Source of the DNA: Nitrososphaeraceae archaeon
GTDB taxonomy: Archaea > Thermoproteota > Nitrososphaeria > Nitrososphaerales > Nitrososphaeraceae
Direction of reading: 5' to 3'
NCBI GenBank assembly: GCA_035250975.1
Contig: DATFEP010000024.1
Span: 1-10,739, forward strand
DNA: 10,739 bases
Made by a program: the position numbers and the translations under genes. Every line of letters begins with the position of its first letter. The stretch's first letter is position 1. A model generated the notes under the pieces. That model was not told where the DNA came from and searched no databases. It saw nothing but the letters and a program-made list of their open reading frames with translations. Of this stretch, positions 1,682 through 10,739 are shown in pieces.

Positions 1682-2680
1682 TTAATTGGATAAAAATTCT
1701 TTAGCCTCAAAAAATCCTGTAAGATCTTTTGATAGATGGTCACAAAATATTCCTAGCATTTCAAAGTCAATTGTTGAAAATTTCTTACGACTGAATATAG
1801 CCAAGACTGCAATTGCTTCCTGTTTGTATAAAAGAGGATATGCTGCAAAGGACAATAACTTTTCTTTTTTAACCCATTCTGGATGTCTTGTTAAAGGATC
1901 ATGAGGTAAATCATTCGTAACAAATGGTTTTTTCTTTTTGATAGCAGGTCCCAGTTGTAGTGAATCGTGAAGAGAAACTTTTGAAAATTCGCCATCAATT
2001 CTTGTATATTTTCCAGCACTGAATCTTAAGATCAGATTTGTTTTATTCTTATCAACAAACCAGATTCTTGCAAAATATGCATTGAAATATTTTACTACAT
2101 ATTCTACAGTTTTTTGGAGACGATCATTGAGATTATCGTATTTCTTTAATGAATTTAGAATTTGAAATACTTTTGTCTTTCTTTCTATATCTTCCAGATT
2201 ATTATCATAAACAGAATAAGGCAATAGTTTTAAATTTATCGATTCATATGTTCTAAAATCACTAATTAGTTCACCAAAGCGATTAAGAAAATTTATTGAT
2301 TCAATCTCATATTGTTCAATAGAATCAAATATAAAATGACATACCCAATCAAAGTCGCCATTTAATTTACTTGCATAAATACAAAATAAAGATTCTTGGG
2401 CATATTCATTCAATAATTTAAGATTTTCAGAATTTTTAGAATACTTAAATTTCAAAAGAATTGTACGATTTGCTTTGTTATTTGTTATTAATTCAGGATT
2501 TAATATAGCTGAATAACCTAAGACAATCTTTTTCTTTACAAGCCCTGCAATTCTATTCCTGACGGTTCTATCAGTTATAGAAAAGCCTAAGTTATTCATT
2601 TGTTTTCTAATCTCAAGAGAAGATATCCTTGCATCTTTTACAAGATAAGAAAGAATTATCTTATCAATCTCATCTAACAC
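1682..2680 (-). CDS. Lrp/AsnC-family transcriptional regulator with C-terminal GAF domain
   Basis: N-terminal AsnC-type HTH (LDEIDKIILSYLVKDARIS...TVRNRIAGLVKKKIVLGYSAILNP), RAM-like middle domain (KLNGDFDWVCHFIFDSIE), and GAF domain (FARIWFVD...LILRFSAG...PFVTNDLPHDP...EKLLSFAAYPLLYKQEAIAVLAIFSRKKFS). GTG start. Confidence 0.88.
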   Translation of the reverse strand: MLDEIDKIILSYLVKDARISSLEIRKQMNNLGFSITDRTVRNRIAGLVKKKIVLGYSAILNPELITNNKANRTILLKFKYSKNSENLKLLNEYAQESLFCIYASKLNGDFDWVCHFIFDSIEQYEIESINFLNRFGELISDFRTYESINLKLLPYSVYDNNLEDIERKTKVFQILNSLKKYDNLNDRLQKTVEYVVKYFNAYFARIWFVDKNKTNLILRFSAGKYTRIDGEFSKVSLHDSLQLGPAIKKKKPFVTNDLPHDPLTRHPEWVKKEKLLSFAAYPLLYKQEAIAVLAIFSRKKFSTIDFEMLGIFCDHLSKDLTGFFEAKEFLSN

Positions 2681-2712
2681 ATATATCTAAAACAATAATC
2701 AATAATATATCA

Positions 2713-2802
2713 ATTTCCAACTTGGAAAAATTAAATGTTAATGGTTTAATAAAGCTATAAAATAATTTCCAAAATGGAAATATAATGAATTTTTGATTTC
2801 CA
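2713..2802. promoter_or_regulatory. Phased palindromic binding sites in the divergent promoter
   Basis: ATTTCCA-ACT-TGGAAAA at 2713-2729, ATTTCCA-AAA-TGGAAAT at 2765-2781 and half-site ATTTCCA at 2796-2802. Spacings are 52 and 31 bp. Confidence 0.7.
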
Positions 2803-2836
2803 TCCTAAATAATAATGATTCAGAGATACATATAGC

Positions 2837-3361
2837 ATGTATAATACAATACATCAAAATATTAAAAAAGAATATATCAATATTAAAAAATATTTTTGGA
2901 AAAATCAGCAATACATACTTTTGAATAGAAGTATATTTACTGGAATAATAGCAGCTGTTTTAATCTCTTCTTTAGCGTCTCATCTAACGAGAGATCTAGA
3001 ATATCATTTAAACACTAGTTTTACGATAGCAATAAGCTATATAACATATTATACAGTTTTTGGACTATTATATTATCATGATAACAAAGAAGAATATCTT
3101 TTAGAGAATGGAAAACTTGATACTAAAAAGTTAAGAAATATCTTGAAAATAATATTTTCTGTTGGTATTGCTGAATTAGTTTATGTAATAATAAGATGGA
3201 CAATGCACTTTTATCTTTTAACAATCGGATATGAATCTTATTTAACATCTATTATAGCTCATATTTCTTCAGCTATAATATTTGCTATTATTGTAAATCT
3301 AGGTGTCAAAGCAACAAAACTATTCAACAATAGATATGACCATAGAGATAGCAAAATCTAA
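2837..3361 (+). CDS. Small four-TM membrane protein, GtrA-like (conserved thaumarchaeal type)
   Basis: 174-aa ORF with four hydrophobic segments in two pairs, separated by a charged loop (YYHDNKEEYLLENGKLDTKKLR). Family assignment is by resemblance only. Confidence 0.7.
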   Translation: MYNTIHQNIKKEYINIKKYFWKNQQYILLNRSIFTGIIAAVLISSLASHLTRDLEYHLNTSFTIAISYITYYTVFGLLYYHDNKEEYLLENGKLDTKKLRNILKIIFSVGIAELVYVIIRWTMHFYLLTIGYESYLTSIIAHISSAIIFAIIVNLGVKATKLFNNRYDHRDSKI

Positions 3362-3554
3362 TATATAGTTAAATTTCTTATTTTTATGGTTGTTATATTT
3401 TTGTATCTAAGATAAAATAGTATTAGTACTATTGACTAATATAGATTACAATATAGTAAATTATAAAAACAATTATGAATAGTTCTAGCAAATAATATCA
3501 TATTTTGACAAGCTAATGATAATACTTATATTAATATTCTATATTATTATCTTA

Positions 3555-4640
3555 TTGAATCAACAATTAAAAAATAATGTCAATGAGTCCAAGATACAAG
3601 ACTTTATGAATAAAGCTATACAAGATATTGCTGGAAGCTCTACTGCTATGCTAGTCATTTTAGGAGAAAGACTTGGATTATATAAAGCGATGGCAGATGA
3701 AAACAAATACATTACGTTTCAAGAACTTGCAAAAAAGACAGGAACTAATGAAAGATTAGTTAAGGAATGGCTAGGAAATCAAGTCTCGGCTGGTTATATA
3801 GAATATGATCCTTCAACTGAACAATACTTTTTACCTCCTGAACATGCACTAGTATTATCTGATTCTAATAGTCCCATCTATATTCAAGGAATTTTTAAAG
3901 CAATAAAATCTTATTTTAAAGATGAAGAAGAATTCATAAAAATGTTCAAAGACGAAAGAACTTTCACTTGGATGGATCATCATCCTTGTATGGCAGATGG
4001 CTTTGCCGAATTCTTTAAAGCTGGATATATAGGTAACTTATTAAATTTATGGATACCATCAATAGAAAATGGAAAAATTCAAGAAAAACTCAAACAAGGA
4101 GGTATCAAAGTAGCAGATGTAGGCTCTGGCTACGGAATTAGTACAATACTTTTGGCAAAAGCTTTTCCAAATTCTAATTTTATAGGATTTGATTTTCATA
4201 AAGAATCAATTGAAAAAGCAACTAATCTTGCAAAACAAGAGAATTTAAAAAATGTAAAATTTGAGATAGCATCAGCATCAGATTTTCCAGGTACTAATTA
4301 TGATTTCATTACATTCTTTGACTGCCTTCATGATATGGGTGATCCTCAAGGTACATTGACTCATGTATTAGATGTCATAAATAAAGAAGAAGGAGTTTGT
4401 ATGATAGTTGAACCATATGCTAAAAATAAACTTGAAGATAATATAAATCCAATATCAGAGACATTCTATGCTGCCTCTACATTAATATGTGTACCTAATT
4501 CCTTAGCTTTTAACGGTCCAGCATTAGGAGCACAAGCAGGAGAAGAAAGAATTAGAGATATTGTGAAGAAAAGTGGTTTTAGACATTTTAAAAGAGCAAT
4601 AGACACACCTATAAATATTGTATATGAAATTAAGCCATAG
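3555..4640 (+). CDS. Class I SAM-dependent methyltransferase with N-terminal winged helix (Rv2258c-like)
   Basis: Motifs LGERLGLYKAM, ELAKKTGTNERLVKEWL, motif I VADVGSGYG, FIGFDFH, FFDCLHDMGDP and STLICVPNSLA...ALGAQAGE. The frame is open from ATG 3516, but TTG 3555 fits TTATATTA at 3526-3533 and removes an implausible AT-derived hydrophobic N-terminus. Confidence 0.92.
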   Translation: MNQQLKNNVNESKIQDFMNKAIQDIAGSSTAMLVILGERLGLYKAMADENKYITFQELAKKTGTNERLVKEWLGNQVSAGYIEYDPSTEQYFLPPEHALVLSDSNSPIYIQGIFKAIKSYFKDEEEFIKMFKDERTFTWMDHHPCMADGFAEFFKAGYIGNLLNLWIPSIENGKIQEKLKQGGIKVADVGSGYGISTILLAKAFPNSNFIGFDFHKESIEKATNLAKQENLKNVKFEIASASDFPGTNYDFITFFDCLHDMGDPQGTLTHVLDVINKEEGVCMIVEPYAKNKLEDNINPISETFYAASTLICVPNSLAFNGPALGAQAGEERIRDIVKKSGFRHFKRAIDTPINIVYEIKP

Positions 4641-4910: not shown

Positions 4911-5897
4911 CTAGTGTGTAGCTTAATTCTACTATATGATGATTTATTCACAAATTATTGTTACTAAAGTGATATGAATTTGTTATAGAACCTTATCTTT
5001 AGGGAAGTTTCTACTTTTTGCATACCAAATTTTCTTGATAGTAAATGTTCTCCCAGCACACGTTTTAATAATGAAAAGACAACCTCGGCAATCCATCTCT
5101 GTCCAGTATCTTTCAGTTTCTTATATTGGTCATATCCAATATTTTGAATCAGATATACCAGTTCATTTCTTGATTTACATTTTCTTGTTCTACCATTAGC
5201 ATTCTTTCTGATAGATATGACAGGTTCAATATGCATTTTATCTAGAAGATTAAAATTATTCGTACTGTCATATGCTTTATCTGCATATGTTTTTGCAATC
5301 TTCTAATGTTTGGAAATCTCTTTTATCATTGGTACAAATTTCTTGGTATCATGAACTGTACATTTAGTGACTCTAAACGAGACTATCTGTTTGGATTTTA
5401 CATCAATTGCAATATGTAGTTTGAGGTACTCTCTTCGTCCCTTCTTCATTTATCTTCAATATAATGACCTCTTTTTGATATTACAAGACCTGATGCATCA
5501 ACTACCAAGTTTACAGACTTGTCTTTGATATTATTGTCGTAGATATTTCTAAAATTAGTACACATTTTCTTGATACGTCTTCTTAATTGAGTAAAATGTA
5601 TTTCATATATTCTGATATATTCTGCTAATCCTCTTACAATTCCCTGTACGGTTCTGTATGAAATAGAGAATCCAATTTTCAGAAATGATAGAAATTGTAC
5701 ATAACTATCAGGATATAAAAATGGTCTGCCCACTTTCTTTTTGTTCATAGTTACTAGTTTCTCGTCTCTGTGATTTGATAAACCCAATATCCATCAAGAT
5801 ATGACGACGTTCTATTAGGGATTCATTATATGCAGACCAATTTCTTTTGGACACTAGAAGAATAACAAGATTGCAGGATAATAATGCTACAAACTAG
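4911..5897 (-). mobile_element. IS5-family insertion sequence (degenerate), bounded by imperfect IRs and CTAG at both ends
   Basis: 4911-4933 CTAGTGTGTAGCTTAATTCTACT matches the reverse complement of 5875-5897, CTAGTTTGTAGCATTATTATCCT, at 18/23. These ends enclose the transposase remnant. Confidence 0.75.
4964..5854 (-). pseudogene. IS5-family transposase pseudogene (two frameshifts, one nonsense)
   Basis: From GTG 5854: VSKRNWSAYNESLIERRHILMDIGF / frameshift near 5770 / MNKKKVGRPFLYPDS...VVDASGL...GHYIEDK(W) / 1-nt loss near 5446 / KKGRREYLKLHIAIDV...HDTKKF...KH*KIAKTYADKAYDS...GQRWIAEVVFSLLKRVLGE. DDE residues are recognisable. Confidence 0.9.
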
Positions 5898-6008
5898 TGT
5901 ATAACATACAATCCTAACAGAATGGTCAGGATTTCATTTATTTGGATTTTTCTAATCTACAACACAATTATTTTTATATAGGTTTTTTAGTACATTTATC
6001 AAGATTAA

Positions 6009-6241
6009 TTGCCAAAATATTTAGATTCTCATTTAAAGACAGAGGTAGATGAAGATATTTTAAAAACAGCCAAAGAGTTACCTAGAGATGAATATGGTGT
6101 AAAAGTTGACAAATTTTATACAACGTTGAAGCAGGGATAATTTTTTGTATGGTAGATGCACCCAATGAAGAAGCAATAATTAAACATCATGAAAAATATA
6201 ATGTAAAATGTGATAATATCTGGCAAATAAAAGAGATTTAA
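6009..6241 (+). pseudogene. DUF4242 / SCO4226-like (nickel-binding-type) small protein, frameshifted
   Basis: From TTG 6009: MPKYLDSHLKTEVDEDILKTAKELPRDEYGVKV, then a -1 shift near 6108-6110 to QILYNVEAGIIFCMVDAPNEEAIIKHHEKYNVKCDNIWQIKEI*. The FCxxDAPxxEAxxxHH motif is characteristic. TTTATATA at 5973-5980 lies upstream. Confidence 0.8.
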
Positions 6242-6361
6242 AAGATAGATCAGAGTAAGAAGTATATTTTTTTCTTTTAGTTAGTTAGTTAGTATTTTAT
6301 TTCTCAATTAACAAGTTATATTATATCTCTACCAAATCGTTTTAAAGCATTTTTAAATGTT

Positions 6362-6772
6362 TTAAAATTTGCCTTCTTTCTTAATTAAAAGAATAATTTT
6401 TTCCATTATTATATTATCAAAATTACTTTCCTCAAAATCCATGGTAAAAAAGAGGTAATAATTTTCATTGATTGGAATTATACATCTACTCATTTTTTCA
6501 TATCTCCTAAATGCATAGATTAATTTACCCATTTTTGATTCAAATTTTAATCTTGCTTTATGTCTAATTATTGAATTTTTTGCAAATTCGTTATTTTCTT
6601 CTTTGGTAAGGAGGCGCTTTAGCCCTTCTCTAACTCTTTCATTTAGAATAGTACCATTATGATTAGTTATTCCTACCCATCGTATAGACTTGTGGGATTT
6701 CAATATAATTTTGGTAAAATTGTAAAGGAAATTATTATTGTTATTATTATCATTAACATTTGACGACGACAT
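6362..6772 (-). CDS. Thaumarchaeal roadblock/LC7-like protein (DUF6659-type)
   Basis: Pattern IRWVGITNHNGTIL..REGLKRLLTKEE...FESKMGKLIYAFRRYEK...IPI...LFFTMD matches this expanded family by recognition. Confidence 0.7.
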   Translation of the reverse strand: MSSSNVNDNNNNNNFLYNFTKIILKSHKSIRWVGITNHNGTILNERVREGLKRLLTKEENNEFAKNSIIRHKARLKFESKMGKLIYAFRRYEKMSRCIIPINENYYLFFTMDFEESNFDNIIMEKIILLIKKEGKF

Positions 6773-6956
6773 ATACGTATAAGTATATTTGTATTAAATA
6801 AATTCTAATAGTACGAGGATTAATAATATAGTTTCTGTGAAAAAACGACCTTGTTTTCACTTCCTCTATTTTATCCTCAGTAACCCAATAATATTTCTGT
6901 CCTTGTCGTAAAAAAGAAATCCTTTATTCCCTTAGTTACTACTATATTGTATTGTT

Positions 6957-7345
6957 ATGGTAAGATTTATTGAAATGGACGAGAGAGTAAAATTTAAGGA
7001 TCAGATTGAAGAAAAAGAAAAAGAGGGCTCAGTGATTCTGATAAACAAATTCAATGTAGAACCAGATAAGGTTGAGCAGTTTTTAAAGGATTGGGCAGAG
7101 GATGCTACTAACTTTAAACAACAACCAGGATTTATTTCCACACAATTGCATAAAGGGATTGGAAAAAGTAGTGTATTCATTAATATGCAGTTTGGGAATC
7201 GATAGAGCATTATAAGGAAGCGGTTAACAAAATATTGTTTAGTTCTGAAACACAGTCGTCACTTTTAAAATATGATGATGATAGTTTAGTAGTTTCACCA
7301 CATTTATTCAAGAAGGTCCATGTTCGAGGAATATGTGTAGAGTAA
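6957..7345 (+). pseudogene. Antibiotic biosynthesis monooxygenase (ABM)-family protein, frameshifted
   Basis: VILINKFNVEPDKVEQFLKDW...FKQQPGFISTQLHKGIGKSSVFIN. One T is missing near 7184 (AAT-AT GCA GTT TGG). Restoring it gives YAVWESIEHYKEAV...VVSPHLFKKVHVRGICVE* ending at 7345. Confidence 0.88.
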
Positions 7346-7353
7346 TAATTATA

Positions 7354-7415
7354 AATATTATCCATTATACTACATGATTAGACTCTTATTTTTGCACCGC
7401 TATCGGTATTACTCC
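7354..7415. repeat. Dispersed ~62-bp direct repeat, copy 1
   Basis: Aligns with 8760-8820 at 49/62 by hand count, with the exact core ATTAGACTCTTATTTT at 7377-7392. Confidence 0.85.
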
Positions 7416-7638
7416 CTCCTTGGGCATATTAAGTTTCTATTCTTTTAAAGTATCCAAATCAATCTTATCAAGTTCTAATTATGAAATACTATTTTTAAAA
7501 ATAATTTAATATTTTATATAGATAAACAAAAGAAGAATATGATGATATTTATCACATAACAATTAAGCCGTTAACAATTCCATATACTTGCTGATTTCCA
7601 AAATATTTAGTAATACTATAATTTTTTGAAAATCAGAC

Positions 7639-7785
7639 ATGGGTGCTTTATACAAGGCTTGGTTAGGTTATTGGATAACTATAGATAAATTGGAACCTGA
7701 TAAGGAAATTTATTATGCGAAAGTAATACAAAAGTTACAGAGGGAATTGGGGTTAGAGGTTTCAGAGTTTGAGTGTTTAAGTTAA
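7639..7785 (+). CDS. Small hypothetical protein (48 aa; possibly 5'-truncated)
   Basis: MGALYKAWLGYWITIDKLEPDKEIYYAKVIQKLQRELGLEVSEFECLS*. More G-rich than its flanks, with an amphipathic helical pattern. Below the ORF-track cutoff. Confidence 0.55.
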   Translation: MGALYKAWLGYWITIDKLEPDKEIYYAKVIQKLQRELGLEVSEFECLS

Positions 7786-7832
7786 CAAAGATTAGAAACA
7801 TAGAATACCAATACACATCAAAGCTAAAAAAA

Positions 7833-8132
7833 TTAGGGACTTGTAAATATTTTCAGTTGCATCCTTTCTCTCCATTCTTTAGATGAAATCATCTTTTTTT
7901 CTTCCAATAATTCAACAGCTGAGGATATCATGTATTCAAGAACATCCAGATTATATTTATAGTCATTACATGCATGTTTGTCAGAATTTGTCTTGTAACT
8001 GTTTAGAAGAATAGAGGAAATGACAATATTTTGGATTCATTCTGATTCAGTATTTCCTAACCAAGCCAGATCTTTATCGATAATTTCCCAGACTCCTTTT
8101 GGAAATGATAATTTTAGATCCTTGGTATCCAT
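7833..8132 (-). pseudogene. CopG/ribbon-helix-helix-like regulator with internal TGA
   Basis: 100-codon frame MDTKDLKLSFPKGVWEIIDKDLAWLGNTESE*IQNIVISSILL...LDVLEYMISSAVELLEEKKMISSKEWRERMQLKIFTSP*. The only internal stop is codon 32 (8037-8039). The alternating beta strand, helix, G-x-T-x-S-E turn and helix fit the RHH pattern. Confidence 0.65.
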
Positions 8133-8308
8133 TTTAATAAATTATTGCATCTAAAGTTTTTATTATTTTCAATACGATCTTTTTCCTTTTTTTTTAAAAA
8201 GAACCAGCAAGAGCGTTTGTAAATTATTTTTTCATTGAAATTAATTGAAATATTTTTAAAATTAATTATTAATATTTAATAGCATCTTCTTGTTATTGAA
8301 TAATTAAG

Positions 8309-8712
8309 TTGACTAACATTGATATTTGGCAAAAAGAGTTCTGGAATCGATTGAATCAACAAATGCAAGAAAATTTTAAAAAACAAATGGAACTTACACA
8401 AGAACAGGTAAAAAAACAAATGGAACTTACACAAGAACAGGTAAAAAAACAAATGGAATTTACACAAGAACAGATAAAAGAACAATTGGAATTTACAGAA
8501 GAACTGGTAAAAAAACAATTGAACTTACAGAAGAATAGCCAAGAAGATCAGAAGAAGAAGCAAAAATATCCATAGAAGTGGCTATGAAAAATGCAGAGAC
8601 TTTTCTTAATCAACATAATCCAACATTAGCAATGATAGAATTTGAACAAGCAAGATTTTTAAGAAATTTCATGAGAGTGAAATTTCCTTTTATTTTTATT
8701 AATTTAAAATAA
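8309..8712 (+). pseudogene. 11-residue-repeat helical protein. Reads as 88 aa (8309-8575) but appears to be a disrupted ~134-aa gene
   Basis: The fifth repeat lacks one G (TTG-AA CTT ACA GAA GAA TAG). The restored frame passes TAG 8536-8538 and continues PRRSEEEAKISIEVAMKNAETFLNQHNPTLAMIEFEQARFLRNFMRVKFPFIFINLK* to 8712. Confidence 0.6.
8378..8538 (+). repeat. 33-bp coding tandem repeat, ~4.9 units
   Basis: AAAAAACAAATGGAACTTACACAAGAACAGGTA is identical at 8378 and 8411, with variants at 8444, 8477 and 8510. It encodes KKQMELTQEQV-type units. Confidence 0.95.
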
Positions 8713-8759
8713 TTTATTTTATATATAATAATATTAAAATAATTTAAACATAAATCTTT

Positions 8760-8820
8760 AATATTATCTTCTTTACTATAAAATTAGACTCTTATTTTCT
8801 CATCAATATCGTATTACTCC
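8760..8820. repeat. Dispersed ~62-bp direct repeat, copy 2
   Basis: See copy 1. Exact core at 8783-8798. Confidence 0.85.
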
Positions 8821-8845
8821 TCATAGATCCATTATGTTTAGGATT

Positions 8846-8878
8846 TTATTTATGGGTTAATTATTTATGGGTTAATTA
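8846..8878. repeat. 15-bp tandem duplication
   Basis: TTATTTATGGGTTAA x2 plus TTA. Confidence 0.9.
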
Positions 8879-8988
8879 CTGCATAAGAATGTCTAATATT
8901 TTTGTCATCCTAAAATCTCCACAATCCAATTTGTTGTAATGCTTACAACCACAGATGTTGGTATTCTGCCTTGTAATAAATCAACTAA
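8876..8988 (-). pseudogene. Relic of the catalytic C-terminus of an archaeal (SSV1-type) tyrosine integrase
   Basis: The minus strand reads LVDLLQGRIPTSVVV, then after a 1-nt loss near 8942 (R)HYNKLDCGDFRMTKILDILMQ*. DxLQGR...RHY is the box II/catalytic Tyr signature of archaeal SSV1-like integrases. Confidence 0.65.
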
Positions 8989-9035
8989 TTATTTTATATT
9001 TTATTCTAATAGTCCTTTGATATCTATAATAACTA

Positions 9036-9077
9036 TTGTTAAAATGTTATTATAATTTGTTAAAATGTTATTATAAT
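9036..9077. repeat. Perfect 21-bp tandem duplication upstream of the int(N)-like ORF
   Basis: TTGTTAAAATGTTATTATAAT x2 (9036-9056, 9057-9077). Confidence 0.95.
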
Positions 9078-9083
9078 ATCAAA

Positions 9084-9440
9084 ATGCAATCACATAACAA
9101 AAATACTAAGCAATCGAATTATTCACTTTTAACAAATTCAGAATTTCAATTACTCAATGGAAAAGGAGATCGGTCTATTTCAAAAAACTTTGAGTATAAG
9201 ATGAGATCCAATATTAAAAAGAAAGTTCGTATATTCTTAGAAAAGGAATTACCTCTTCTTTTAGAAAATCACTTGATTTCTTTTGGGTATGACAATTACA
9301 ATATTGATCCCAATATTGTAGAAAATATTAAAAAAGATAATGACTTGGTAAGGAAAAGGTCGCGGGATCGAATCCCGCTCAAGACTCAGCCTTTAAGCAT
9401 AAATTTTGGTATTTTTGAAAATAGCATAATAAAATTATAG
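9084..9440 (+). CDS. Putative N-terminal fragment int(N) of a tRNA-split integrase
   Basis: The ORF (open from TTG 9036; ATG 9084 preferred) reads through a tRNA 3' half as LVRKRSRDRIPLK and stops 54 nt later. The N-terminus LLTNSEFQLLNG...ISKNFEYKMRSNIKKKVRIFLEKELPLL is basic and helical. Confidence 0.55.
   Translation: MQSHNKNTKQSNYSLLTNSEFQLLNGKGDRSISKNFEYKMRSNIKKKVRIFLEKELPLLLENHLISFGYDNYNIDPNIVENIKKDNDLVRKRSRDRIPLKTQPLSINFGIFENSIIKL
9344..9386 (+). other. 3' half of tRNA-Thr(GGT): probable att site (not a complete tRNA)
   Basis: C-TTGGTAA (anticodon loop, GGT 9347-9349)-GGAAA-AGGTC (variable)-GCGGG-ATCGAAT-CCCGC (perfect T stem)-TCAAGAC-T. Spacing is canonical for positions 31-73. There is no D arm or 5' acceptor strand upstream. 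Confidence 0.82.
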
Positions 9441-9612
9441 ATAAATACAACTCTCAAAAAGATTTTTTTATCTTGTAAAATTTGCTAATTTATAATTTTG
9501 AGATAGGTTCTTAATTAAGCCAAATTGTGATCGTTAAATTGAAAAAATCTACTAAAATCAAGCACAGAACATAGCAGCAAAACAAAATATACTACTACTT
9601 TATCCGTTGTTA

Positions 9613-10038
9613 TTAGAACCGATATTTGTCTAAGTCTTTTTCTATAATTGCTAAACTGTCATAGAAAGATTTAATGCATTTTTGATAAATAGAATAATGG
9701 AATTTTCTTCCGTCGAAACATTCACGTGTATTTTGATATCCATGTTGATGATCTATGTTATAACAATGTCCTTCTTTAACTTTATTTGTTAGATTCATTA
9801 GTGTCCAAGACATAAATATTAGACTAAAAATCCACATTTTTATCTCCAAATCATTTTTATCATAACGAACACGGCATCTTTCGGATTCATAAGTTTCAGA
9901 AGATATAAGATCGTCTAAATTTGTCATTATATTCTTTGCAAGAATATTAATATCTAATCCTTCTTTTGTAGTTTTTTTGCTAATTTGATCTTGAACAAGA
10001 TTATAAAATTCATTTATGTTTGTTTGAGTAATTTCCAT
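9613..10038 (-). CDS. Hypothetical protein (141 aa) with Cys/His-rich C-terminal segment
   Basis: Uninterrupted ORF in AT-rich DNA with an ATG start. No family recognised. Confidence 0.6.
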   Translation of the reverse strand: MEITQTNINEFYNLVQDQISKKTTKEGLDINILAKNIMTNLDDLISSETYESERCRVRYDKNDLEIKMWIFSLIFMSWTLMNLTNKVKEGHCYNIDHQHGYQNTRECFDGRKFHYSIYQKCIKSFYDSLAIIEKDLDKYRF

Positions 10039-10141
10039 AATTTTTATTATGTTAATGAATTATATTAATAAGTCTAAAGATAATTATTAAATATGAATAC
10101 CATTCATAAAATTAATTATTTTAAAAATCTAATCATTGTTC

Positions 10142-10739
10142 GGTGTTGTTAATTTAAGACTATTTCACCTCCTATATTGAATATTATTGTCTTTCTGATT
10201 TTGGTGTTATATAGATATATGAATAATTTGATCCAATTGTATACATGTGATAGATCACATTTTATACTATTCTTGGTACAAGGATAGTAATCATCAAAAC
10301 ATTCTGTTCTGTCTTTGAAATACTGCATTACTCTTTCAATCAGACTTTTCTCGAATGGTGAATGTAATCGATGTTTCAGATGTAAAAAGTTACATGCCTG
10401 AGGATACCACGTACCACCCACCATCTGTATACACAGTATGTTTTCCATACTTTGATACAAGAGATCTAATAAAATTCTCTGCTACAAACATGTTTCTCTC
10501 TTCTGAGATGTAGATCCCAAGAACGGATCTATGAACAGGTTCAATACAGATCCACAACCAGAAATGATGACCCCCAATCTGAATTATAGTTTCATCTATG
10601 ATGAATGCTGATACTCTTTTTCTCTTGTAAATCCGTAATGAACCAAATCGTTGAATCCATTCCCAGACTGCAACATGACTTCTTTTCTCATCTCTAAAGA
10701 TTACTAATGCTTTAGATGTATTCCGTAGACTCAAACCAA
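10142..10739 (-). mobile_element. IS6-family insertion sequence, right copy (upstream end outside the window)
   Basis: IR GGTGTTGTTAATTTAAG at 10142-10158 overlaps the transposase stop. 10158-10739 is collinear with 1-578, with 9 mismatches in the first 60 aligned nt. Confidence 0.9.
10149..10739 (-). pseudogene. IS6-family transposase frameshifted by a 4-nt duplication
   Basis: ORFs 10390-10734 and 10149-10460 are two halves of one gene. The plus strand reads GTACCACCCACCATC (10411-10425) versus GTACCTCCATC in the intact left copy. Confidence 0.9.

Follow-up and report, generated by a model that had tools for sequence, protein, structure and literature searches.

The question raised by this locus is why a protein-coding frame of an ammonia-oxidising archaeon from soil reads through half of a tRNA gene. 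The locus lies near the right end of the window, which is the entire 10,739-nucleotide (nt) contig C69 (DATFEP010000024.1) of the Nitrososphaeraceae archaeon genome assembly GCA_035250975.1, and comprises an open reading frame (ORF), 9084-9440, and a piece of a tRNA-Thr(GGT) gene embedded in it. An earlier note on this DNA had proposed that the ORF is the N-terminal fragment of an SSV1-type split integrase that carries the attachment (att) site within its own gene, so that integration into the tRNA gene leaves int(N) at one end of the element and the catalytic part, int(C), at the other. The comparisons described below support this proposal. Judged by its sequence relatives, the ORF is the Int(N) part, together with att, of an SSV-type suicidal integrase, and we put at roughly 0.85 the probability that window positions 8991-9421 are the stranded right-hand junction of a small element of this kind ('type I', 'suicidal'). 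The relic itself is dead and ordinary: the mechanism behind such stranded int(N)/att junctions has been known since SSV1.

The tRNA piece was parsed by direct reading as follows: C31, the anticodon loop TTGGTAA with anticodon GGT, GGAAA (39-43), the variable loop AGGTC, a T stem GCGGG/CCCGC around the 7-nt loop ATCGAAT, the acceptor 3' strand TCAAGAC, and the discriminator T. This parse bears out the earlier reading of 9344-9386 as tRNA positions 31-73 with the right spacing and a perfect T stem, and the ORF does end shortly after it, at a stop 54 nt past the tRNA piece. The att core is identical at 42 of 43 bases to the intact tRNA-Thr(GGT) gene of a relative, G019, and none of 200 dinucleotide shuffles of the window matched that gene with three or fewer mismatches. 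ARAGORN labels the intact genes of the relatives tRNA-Thr(ggt); because the window holds only half a gene, ARAGORN calls no tRNA in it and Rfam gives no tRNA match there at E<=10. The 43-mer occurs once in its own genome when up to three mismatches are allowed. Its first 23 nt are identical to the host tRNA-Thr(GGT) gene on contig C89, and four differences from the deduced spliced form of that gene follow. Beyond these 23 nt, the att core differs from the host gene in being intron-less, in its T loop ATCGAAT, and in having A rather than G at position 71. Drift since integration, by which the earlier note had explained the T loop, was rejected, since A54 is present in 10 of the 19 intact genes identified in the genus: the loop is ATCGAAT in G016 and G019, the two closest relatives examined, and ATCAAAT in G002, G004, G009, G011, G013, G014, G020, and G023. 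In the window copy, A71 is the sole likely decay.

The protein encoded by the ORF has no long paralogue in the genome. An alternative TTG start at 9036 would extend it to 134 amino acids, and in its upstream arm 21 nt are perfectly duplicated in tandem (9036-9077). When 1.84 billion representatives were searched exhaustively with phmmer, 83 matches at E<=1e-3 were obtained, all of 47-167 amino acids, that have in common an N-terminal domain of about 50 amino acids with the consensus LL(T/S)xxExxWLxG...SKSFEYKxKSxIKKK...ELPLL. Alignment A1 consists of the window ORF and 61 of the 83 homologues, picked by hand (the 22 omitted are mostly short fragments); L16, E20, and P57 are invariant in it, and L15, L24, S33, K34, Y38, S42, K47, E55, L58, and L59 are at least 90% conserved. 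The top genome-wide match of the hidden Markov model (HMM) of this N-domain is the window copy itself (E 1.6e-22). AlphaFold2 models helices at residues 18-24 and 34-61, and the predicted local distance difference test score (pLDDT), averaged over 10-residue blocks, is 91, 95, and 92 across residues 31-60, with a whole-model mean of 71. The N-terminus of the SSV2 integrase mediates oligomerisation, and the present N-domain may act in oligomerisation or DNA binding.

Behind the N-domain, many of the 18 homologues that were read end in translated tRNA 3' halves, either LVRQRSRVQIPAKA or SLGKAKVPGPNPGQG, which represent two frames of a tRNA-Thr-like half. Integrase lineages likewise translate the same tRNA-Thr 3' half in two frames, as LGKxKVAGxNPAQG and as LVRxRSRxxIPxKA, and some lineages carry the tRNA antisense (GRKGFEPSNPAM). 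Because one and the same tRNA half is read in different frames or antisense, the constraint acts on the DNA and not on the peptide.

The connection to integrases was provided by a profile search of longer proteins. Two of 8,000 scored candidates were retrieved, P0084 (389 amino acids, E 5.9e-14) and P0085 (457 amino acids, E 1.5e-9), for which pairwise BLASTP with the ORF gives 6e-11 and 1e-10, respectively. Both carry the domain PF16795 ('archaeal phage integrase', Phage_integr_3), with 34 and 27 bits at a cut-off of 27. The N-domain of P0084 is followed by SLGKAKVAGPNPAQG and then by a catalytic part ending in LLHGR...RHYY. A search with P0084 found 394 relatives at E<=1e-5, and among eight of them that were read, P0122 and P0169 proved to be two more full-length forms with the N-domain. 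In P0086-88, an int(C) frame begins within a whole tRNA gene, and P0204 reads through the tRNA-Thr half including an intron in the T loop. Thus, the long homologues of the ORF (P0084, P0085, P0122, and P0169) are PF16795 integrases, as the proposal of a split integrase implies; and since the N-domain is the N-terminus of such full-length proteins with an internal tRNA piece, the ORF is a fragment of Int(N) type.

The same arrangement recurs across the family. The integrase profile, based on alignment A2 (32 hand-picked proteins of 120 listed, out of the 394), matched 216 patterns in species-representative genomes, and 131 of these were confirmed. For a count of split geometry, 79 loci were fetched with 6-kb flanks. 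The N-domain was found in the flanks of 17 of them: downstream of int(C) on the same strand in 10, contiguous with int(C) in 5, and on the opposite strand in 2. A direct repeat of 14-43 nt joins the start of int(C) to the end of int(N) in 8 of the 10 split loci, and repeats of only 9-10 nt are present in the other two; tRNA-Thr(GGT) is involved in 7 of the 10 and a tRNA-Arg in one. The span between int(C) and int(N) in these related elements is only about 2.7-7 kb. Among named relatives, the closest integrases are carried by Candidatus Nitrosocosmicus and other Nitrososphaeraceae metagenome-assembled genomes. No relatives were found in viral contigs either with the single-protein scan using P0084 or with integrase profile A2, nor in genome contigs with the single-protein scan using P0169. 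Overall, mesophilic Nitrososphaeraceae and neighbours of theirs are rich in PF16795 suicidal integrases with the conserved N-domain (394 proteins, 131 stretches, and 18 of 24 genomes of the genus).

Some members of this family show repeated segments within int(C). At locus L051 (G009:C65), around 6700-6810 and about 100 nt past att, int(C) holds two copies of the motif TTACCAAATA.AGTAAG, coding for LPNxVR twice, as well as an inverted copy of the tRNA 5' half coding for RSTRLSY. At least two LPxxV(R/M) motifs are present in 18 of the 32 integrases of A2, and RST(R/S)LSY in 11 of them. These segments may be integrase-binding sites or the trace of a past inversion within the gene.

Table 1. Coordinates of the junction, its parts, and other features (window positions unless a contig is named)
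Feature	Positions	Strand	Evidence or remark
Predicted int(N): N-terminal fragment of an SSV-type 'suicidal' integrase, reads through att	9084..9440	+	ATG start, 118 amino acids
Conserved upstream arm of int(N), probable promoter region	8991..9083	+	Homology starts at 8991
Conserved Int(N) domain, residues 14-62, a short helix and one long helix	9123..9269	+	Alignment A1, HMM, AlphaFold2
att core, a tRNA-Thr(GGT) copy (positions 31-73) without intron, with T loop ATCGAAT and A71	9344..9386	+	Direct reading, alignments
Conserved post-tRNA leader, which opens int(C) wherever the latter is preserved; homology reaches about 9421	9387..9421	+	Matches in C89, G016, G019, G009, and others
Possible relic of integrase C-terminal 'box II' (LVDLLQGRIPTSVVV)	8908..8988	-	3 nt from the arm
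Third Int(N)-domain relic	C2:61384-61510	+	N-domain HMM, E 1.2e-11
Multi-copy module with a 141-amino-acid ORF (9613-10038)	9487..10141	-	Function unassigned, no Pfam match
IS6/IS240-family insertion sequence (IS) transposase copy, cut by the contig end	10143..10739	-	PF13610
Second IS6/IS240 copy, at the other contig end	1-~720		PF13610
Broken IS5-type transposase	about 4913-5900		Lies inside the contig

The junction is present in contigs other than the window. Metagenome contigs of three further studies cover it with few differences: X3 and X4 each provide one contig over 9297-9643, with 4 and 7 differing letters, respectively, and X2 provides overlapping contigs over 8729-9373 and 9354-9660. 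The best match, a single contig of X1 over 8749-9636, was not counted because it may be the source sample. Given these independent contigs, an assembly chimera can be dismissed. In four public runs, the contigs contain the junction as in the window and no joint of an excised circle; since contigs miss rare forms, the latter carries no weight either way.

The mechanism of type I suicidal integrases (She et al., Badel et al.) is reviewed in PMC8371274 (here and below, statements drawn from PMC8371274, PMC6563490, and PMC3293823 refer to the consulted parts of these papers). Applied to the present locus, the integrase gene of the free element would have consisted of the N-domain, a linker, attP in the form of the 3' part of tRNA-Thr(GGT), and the catalytic part, in that order. 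Recombination of attP with the chromosomal tRNA gene would split the integrase gene in two: the rebuilt tRNA would be followed by int(C), and int(N) would lie at the far end and read into the duplicated 3' half of the tRNA. The window would then hold int(N) with its upstream arm, the copy of tRNA positions 31-73, and about 35 nt of conserved post-tRNA sequence. We infer that integration into tRNA-Thr(GGT) produced this copy, and not a later event in which such a junction was duplicated or rearranged.

Comparison with the genus reveals an island of decayed elements at the same tRNA. In both G016 and G019, which are better assembled, such elements lie downstream of tRNA-Thr(GGT) on the same strand. 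G016 has a 'B' site, composed of the last 15 nt of the tRNA and the conserved flank, 14 kb downstream, and a distal int(N) with a half-tRNA 18.5 kb downstream; in G019, a second int(N) with a half-tRNA, the B site, and the distal copy follow at 3.1, 9.8, and 14 kb, respectively. In the window genome, the island is spread in this order over a pair of contigs. On C89 are the tRNA and, at 176214, a B site, after which 279 nt remain to the contig end; C2, read backwards, contains three small genes, a lactonase, and an int(N) with a half-tRNA at 62520-62147. The latter is a second copy of the window locus, with 82% identity over 397 nt, and the homology of the window to C2, G016, and G019 begins at 8991. 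The C2 copy shares the right flank GTAATAC... and the lactonase neighbour with the distal copies of G016 and G019, so the window copy was rejected as the ortholog of those relics. The frame of the C2 copy has a stop and a frameshift, and the G019 copy also carries stops or a frameshift. The window copy is therefore a second, better preserved copy, its frame being open and its tRNA piece almost perfect. The third relic, also on C2, is shortened, converges with the C2 half-tRNA at a distance of about 640 nt, and has no recognised tRNA piece beside it. Pfam found no integrase among 25 ORFs tested in the G016 and G019 islands.

Several observations weigh against the interpretation of the window locus as a stranded junction, and most of them concern the missing partner. 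The earlier note had predicted, upstream on the plus strand, an intact tRNA-Thr(GGT) followed by int(C), which could be joined in silico to int(N). A same-strand tRNA 14-18 kb upstream of such a relic is seen in G016 and G019, where the relic corresponds to the C2 copy. In the window genome, the intact tRNA was found on another contig, at C89:172310-172404; no int(C) follows it directly, and the assembly offers none of this family for a join. Thus, tblastn with P0084 and P0085 found no int(C) of the family in the assembly; P0204 gave 0 matches in this genome (G000) versus 18 of 24 relatives; and the family HMM, run over 97,747 six-frame segments, detected no int(C) of the family, retrieving only a distant recombinase on C12 and a marginal relic of 15 amino acids. 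Behind the target tRNA, int(C) of the catalytic R...HxxR...Y type is found only in relatives: a 248-amino-acid int(C) frame in G009 and a relic of about 60 amino acids directly behind tRNA-Thr(GGT) in G019. A tblastx comparison of window positions 5900-9100 with the bodies of 9 related elements (9 of the 10 split-geometry loci, L121 being left out) gave no match at 1e-4. The 118-amino-acid ORF matches 0 Pfam families and does not reach the gathering threshold of PF16795, a model of the catalytic domain, which the fragment lacks. Only four full-length fusions were read individually (5 of the 79 loci being contiguous) as against hundreds of frames with int(C) only. Finally, the orthologous relic of the genus island is the C2 copy and not the window copy, and the latter makes up part of a whole 10.7-kb contig, C69, that is bounded by IS copies; the direct-repeat test gave the intact tRNA-Thr(GGT), with its identical 23-nt core, on another contig.

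The two HMM matches mentioned above deserve description. The C12 recombinase, the best family match, is an intact tyrosine recombinase of 365 amino acids (C12:9671-10765, minus strand; E 5.7e-8) that scores 26.2 bits with PF16795, just below the cut-off. It lies 460 nt downstream of a tRNA-Ala(CGC) gene (C12:11226-11298, minus strand) on the same strand. It is probably the unsplit integrase of another integrated element. The second-best match genome-wide is the 15-residue LVDLLQGRIPTSVVV at 8944-8988 of the window's minus strand (E 0.075, 14.5 bits), for which tblastn with P0084 and P0085 within 1.7 kb gives E 0.002-0.003. By this marginal match, the surrounding minus-strand stretch may be a relic of an integrase C-terminus. 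No recognisable element genes are present to the left of 8991. With the catalytic half absent from the assembly as well, the window copy cannot move by itself, and it would be immobile unless a related integrase acts in trans, as described for SSV2 and pTN3 (PMC8371274).

The extent of the att-related DNA bears on the type of the junction. The earlier note had placed the edge of the element DNA at 9386; this placing needs to be refined, since homology to post-tRNA sequence runs on to about 9421, and 9386 is thus not the edge of the att-related DNA. The 49-nt match of 9373-9421 to the B site on C89 is 90% identical, and its part beyond the tRNA end corresponds to C89:176228-176262. A similar leader follows the intact tRNA-Thr(GGT) in at least eight genomes of the genus, with or without int(C). 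In G009, where the tRNA is intact, the leader (LVRKRSRD...LSTNFG) runs into int(C) and shares its reading frame with the window ORF (LVRKRSRDQIPLKAFHLSTNFG against LVRKRSRDRIPLKTQPLSINFG), so the window ORF would join in frame to int(C) of the G009 lineage. Two types of junction therefore come into question: an attR whose att is long, or one that is attP-like or tandem. The latter, a variant of the stranded-junction reading, takes int(N), att, and the first codons of int(C) as one frame, the rest having been deleted after about 9421; the locus would then represent either the remaining 5' stump of an integrase gene that was not split or a seam at which two elements integrated in tandem meet. 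No stop interrupts the ORF across 9387-9421 (QPLSINFG), nor the same frame in G009 (FHLSTNFG) before int(C) follows, and the 35 nt shared with the B site belong there to the left edge of an older element that terminates on the right with the C2 int(N) copy and that, if circularised, would give exactly the order seen in the window. In G019, moreover, three relics, of int(N)/half-tRNA or of ends, form a tandem array behind a single tRNA. However, because the same 25-35 nt follow the intact tRNA in the eight or more genomes also where int(C) is lacking, they may equally be host flank in a long att. Sites of att that extend beyond the tRNA gene have been described (PMC8371274), the 32-nt repeat of locus L113 extends 10 nt past the tRNA, and the shared codons, only about 12, are too few to decide. 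We consider this variant rather unlikely.

Two other explanations dispense with integration at this site. If the ORF were an independent small gene, for example for a regulator, that abuts a decayed tRNA fragment and was never part of an integrase, then the shortness of all 83 direct homologues, the missing Pfam match, and the intact window frame, nearly identical in contigs of other samples, would be readily understood. It is the fusions that largely refute this explanation, the N-domain being the N-terminus of four full-length PF16795 integrases and contiguous with int(C) in the 5 loci of 79; in addition, the tails of the homologues are tRNA halves in two frames, so that the DNA and not the peptide is conserved, and the orthologous copies in C2 and G019 contain stops or a frameshift. 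We regard it as very improbable. Split tRNA genes exist in some archaea, and the piece, a 3' half with a perfect T stem and the right spacing, could in principle be a functional half joined in trans to a separate 5' half. This is hardly credible here: a complete tRNA-Thr(GGT), interrupted by a bulge-helix-bulge intron, is present in the genome, A71 would form a mismatch with C2 of the host 5' half, an ORF surrounds the piece, and the orthologous copies decay freely.

With the stranded junction retained as the preferred reading, the state of the target gene itself is of interest. The host tRNA-Thr(GGT) on C89, the only one detected in this organism, was found by direct reading to be complete, with a 21-nt intron in the T loop. 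Because of this intron it was missed by ARAGORN, which reports 19 tRNAs and no Thr(GGT) in the whole genome, and Rfam RF00005 matches only C89:172310-172364, with 24.6 bits, under the cut-off of 29. The minimum-energy fold of the gene is a cloverleaf plus a bulge-helix-bulge with an inner hairpin, formed by the T stem, a 4-bp helix TCCA/TGGA, and 3-nt bulges AAA and ATT on opposite strands. Excision of 21 nt at any of eight registers makes ARAGORN call tRNA-Thr(ggt). The register that fits the bulges places the deduced intron at position 59/60 and leaves the loop TCCAAAT, which is also found in the intron-less gene of G012 and in tRNA-Thr(TGT) of this genome. The 21-nt intron allele is carried by six of the genus's 25 genomes (G000, G001, G017, G018, G021, and G024); intact intron-less genes were found in 13, and only att-like copies or nothing in the other six.

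It is conceivable, and we advance it only tentatively, that a suicidal-integrase element installed the 3' part of the host gene, including the intron, via att exchange, so that the intron would have been gained from attP. ATCGAAT without an intron is the form of both relic att copies, in the window and on C2, and also of the intact genes in G016 and G019, the two relatives with the orthologous relic; the present host gene has TCCAAA-intron-T followed by a flank resembling the int(C) leader. There are also integrase frames that continue across a tRNA-Thr half with its intron (P0204, in frame), and copies of int(N) plus a half with the intron are present in G012 and G022; at 21 nt, the intron keeps such a frame open. 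Fragmentation and intron gain driven by mobile genetic elements have been proposed for tRNA-Thr(GGU) of Caldiarchaeum subterraneum (Sugahara et al. 2012, PMC3293823), which is the same tRNA species as the target here. The two cases differ in that the Caldiarchaeum element was likened to the pNOB8 type, with the 5' fragment displaced, whereas the present integrase is of the SSV type and 3' halves are duplicated. Within the genus, tRNA-Thr(GGT) is a hot spot that has been overwritten repeatedly, and the diversity of alleles in its 3' half, the T-loop intron among them, may be due to this.

Among known systems, the closest in gene layout are the integrases of SSV1 and SSV2, fuselloviruses of Sulfolobales, in which att likewise lies inside the integrase ORF and integration into a tRNA splits the gene into int(N) and int(C) (PMC8371274). 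PF16795 is the domain of this class and is carried by the full-length relatives of the window ORF. The present locus differs in its mesophilic host, a member of Nitrososphaeraceae and not a hyperthermophile, in the survival of the int(N) half only, and in the lack of viral genes and of matches in the viral contig collection; its N-domain has no Pfam model, and the likeness is one of gene layout, not of aligned N-termini. The integrases of the pTN3 and pT26-2 family from Thermococcales and Archaeoglobales belong to the same class and have the same Pfam domain (PMC8371274), but come from another host phylum and from plasmids of 20-40 kb, compared with the short spans between int(C) and int(N) given above. 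According to the same review, stranded pseudogenes of int(N) and int(C) are common and may be rescued by related incoming elements. The review presents the suicidal integrase system as developed by hyperthermophiles, a picture with which the abundance of the family in mesophilic Nitrososphaeraceae contrasts.

A thaumarchaeal counterpart is NitEve-E3 of Nitrososphaera evergladensis, a cryptic element described as having an SSV1-like split integrase (Krupovic et al. 2019, PMC6563490), to which the window copy is likened by that description; unlike NitEve-E3, the latter lacks int(C) and recognisable cargo. The same paper names tRNA genes, including intron-bearing ones, as the usual targets of thaumarchaeal elements, and NitEve-E3 is the only SSV1-like split integrase mentioned in its consulted parts, although its supplementary tables may list more. 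The literature searched, to which these supplements did not belong, contains no description of the N-domain or of the abundance of the family in soil Nitrososphaeraceae.

The surroundings of the junction contain IS elements. The assembly comprises 2.49 Mb in 91 contigs with 30.6% G+C and a completeness of 94.6%. The IS6/IS240 copies at the two ends of the window are 86% identical between 1-578 and 10158-10739, and many more IS copies are found elsewhere in the genome. Between the IS elements of the window are ordinary genes, for OsmC, a GAF regulator, a methyltransferase, and an ABM domain protein. The module to the right of the junction has copies of about 90% identity on other contigs in at least 11 genomes of the genus, is present several times per genome in G005, G010, and G013, and has other neighbours in G016. 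Where the module meets an IS6-type element, with which it may travel, its right edge is constant. As far as its sequence can be judged, the module is not demonstrably host DNA, nor is the IS copy beyond it recognisable host flank.

Several other repeats were observed in the window. Positions 757-2167 and 2998-4639, encoding OsmC, the GAF regulator, and the methyltransferase, have a paralogous copy of 80-83% identity on C56 (35495-32428), which lacks the 830 nt of window positions 2168-2997 with the start of a membrane-protein ORF. At 8309-8575 on the plus strand, an 88-amino-acid ORF consists of imperfect 66-nt tandem repeats (KKQMELTQEQV repeated; 8366-8473 and 8432-8538 are 85% identical), and a perfect 15-nt tandem duplication is found at 8846-8875. 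A dispersed repeat of about 40 nt, TTAGACTCTTATTTT.CACCG.TATCGGTATTACTCC, with an internal palindrome (CACCGATATCGGT-like), occurs at 7378-7420 and 8786-8826; it is also present at C89:~172450-172490, just 3' of the host tRNA-Thr, and on C2, C20, C23, C26, C68, and C71 among many contigs.

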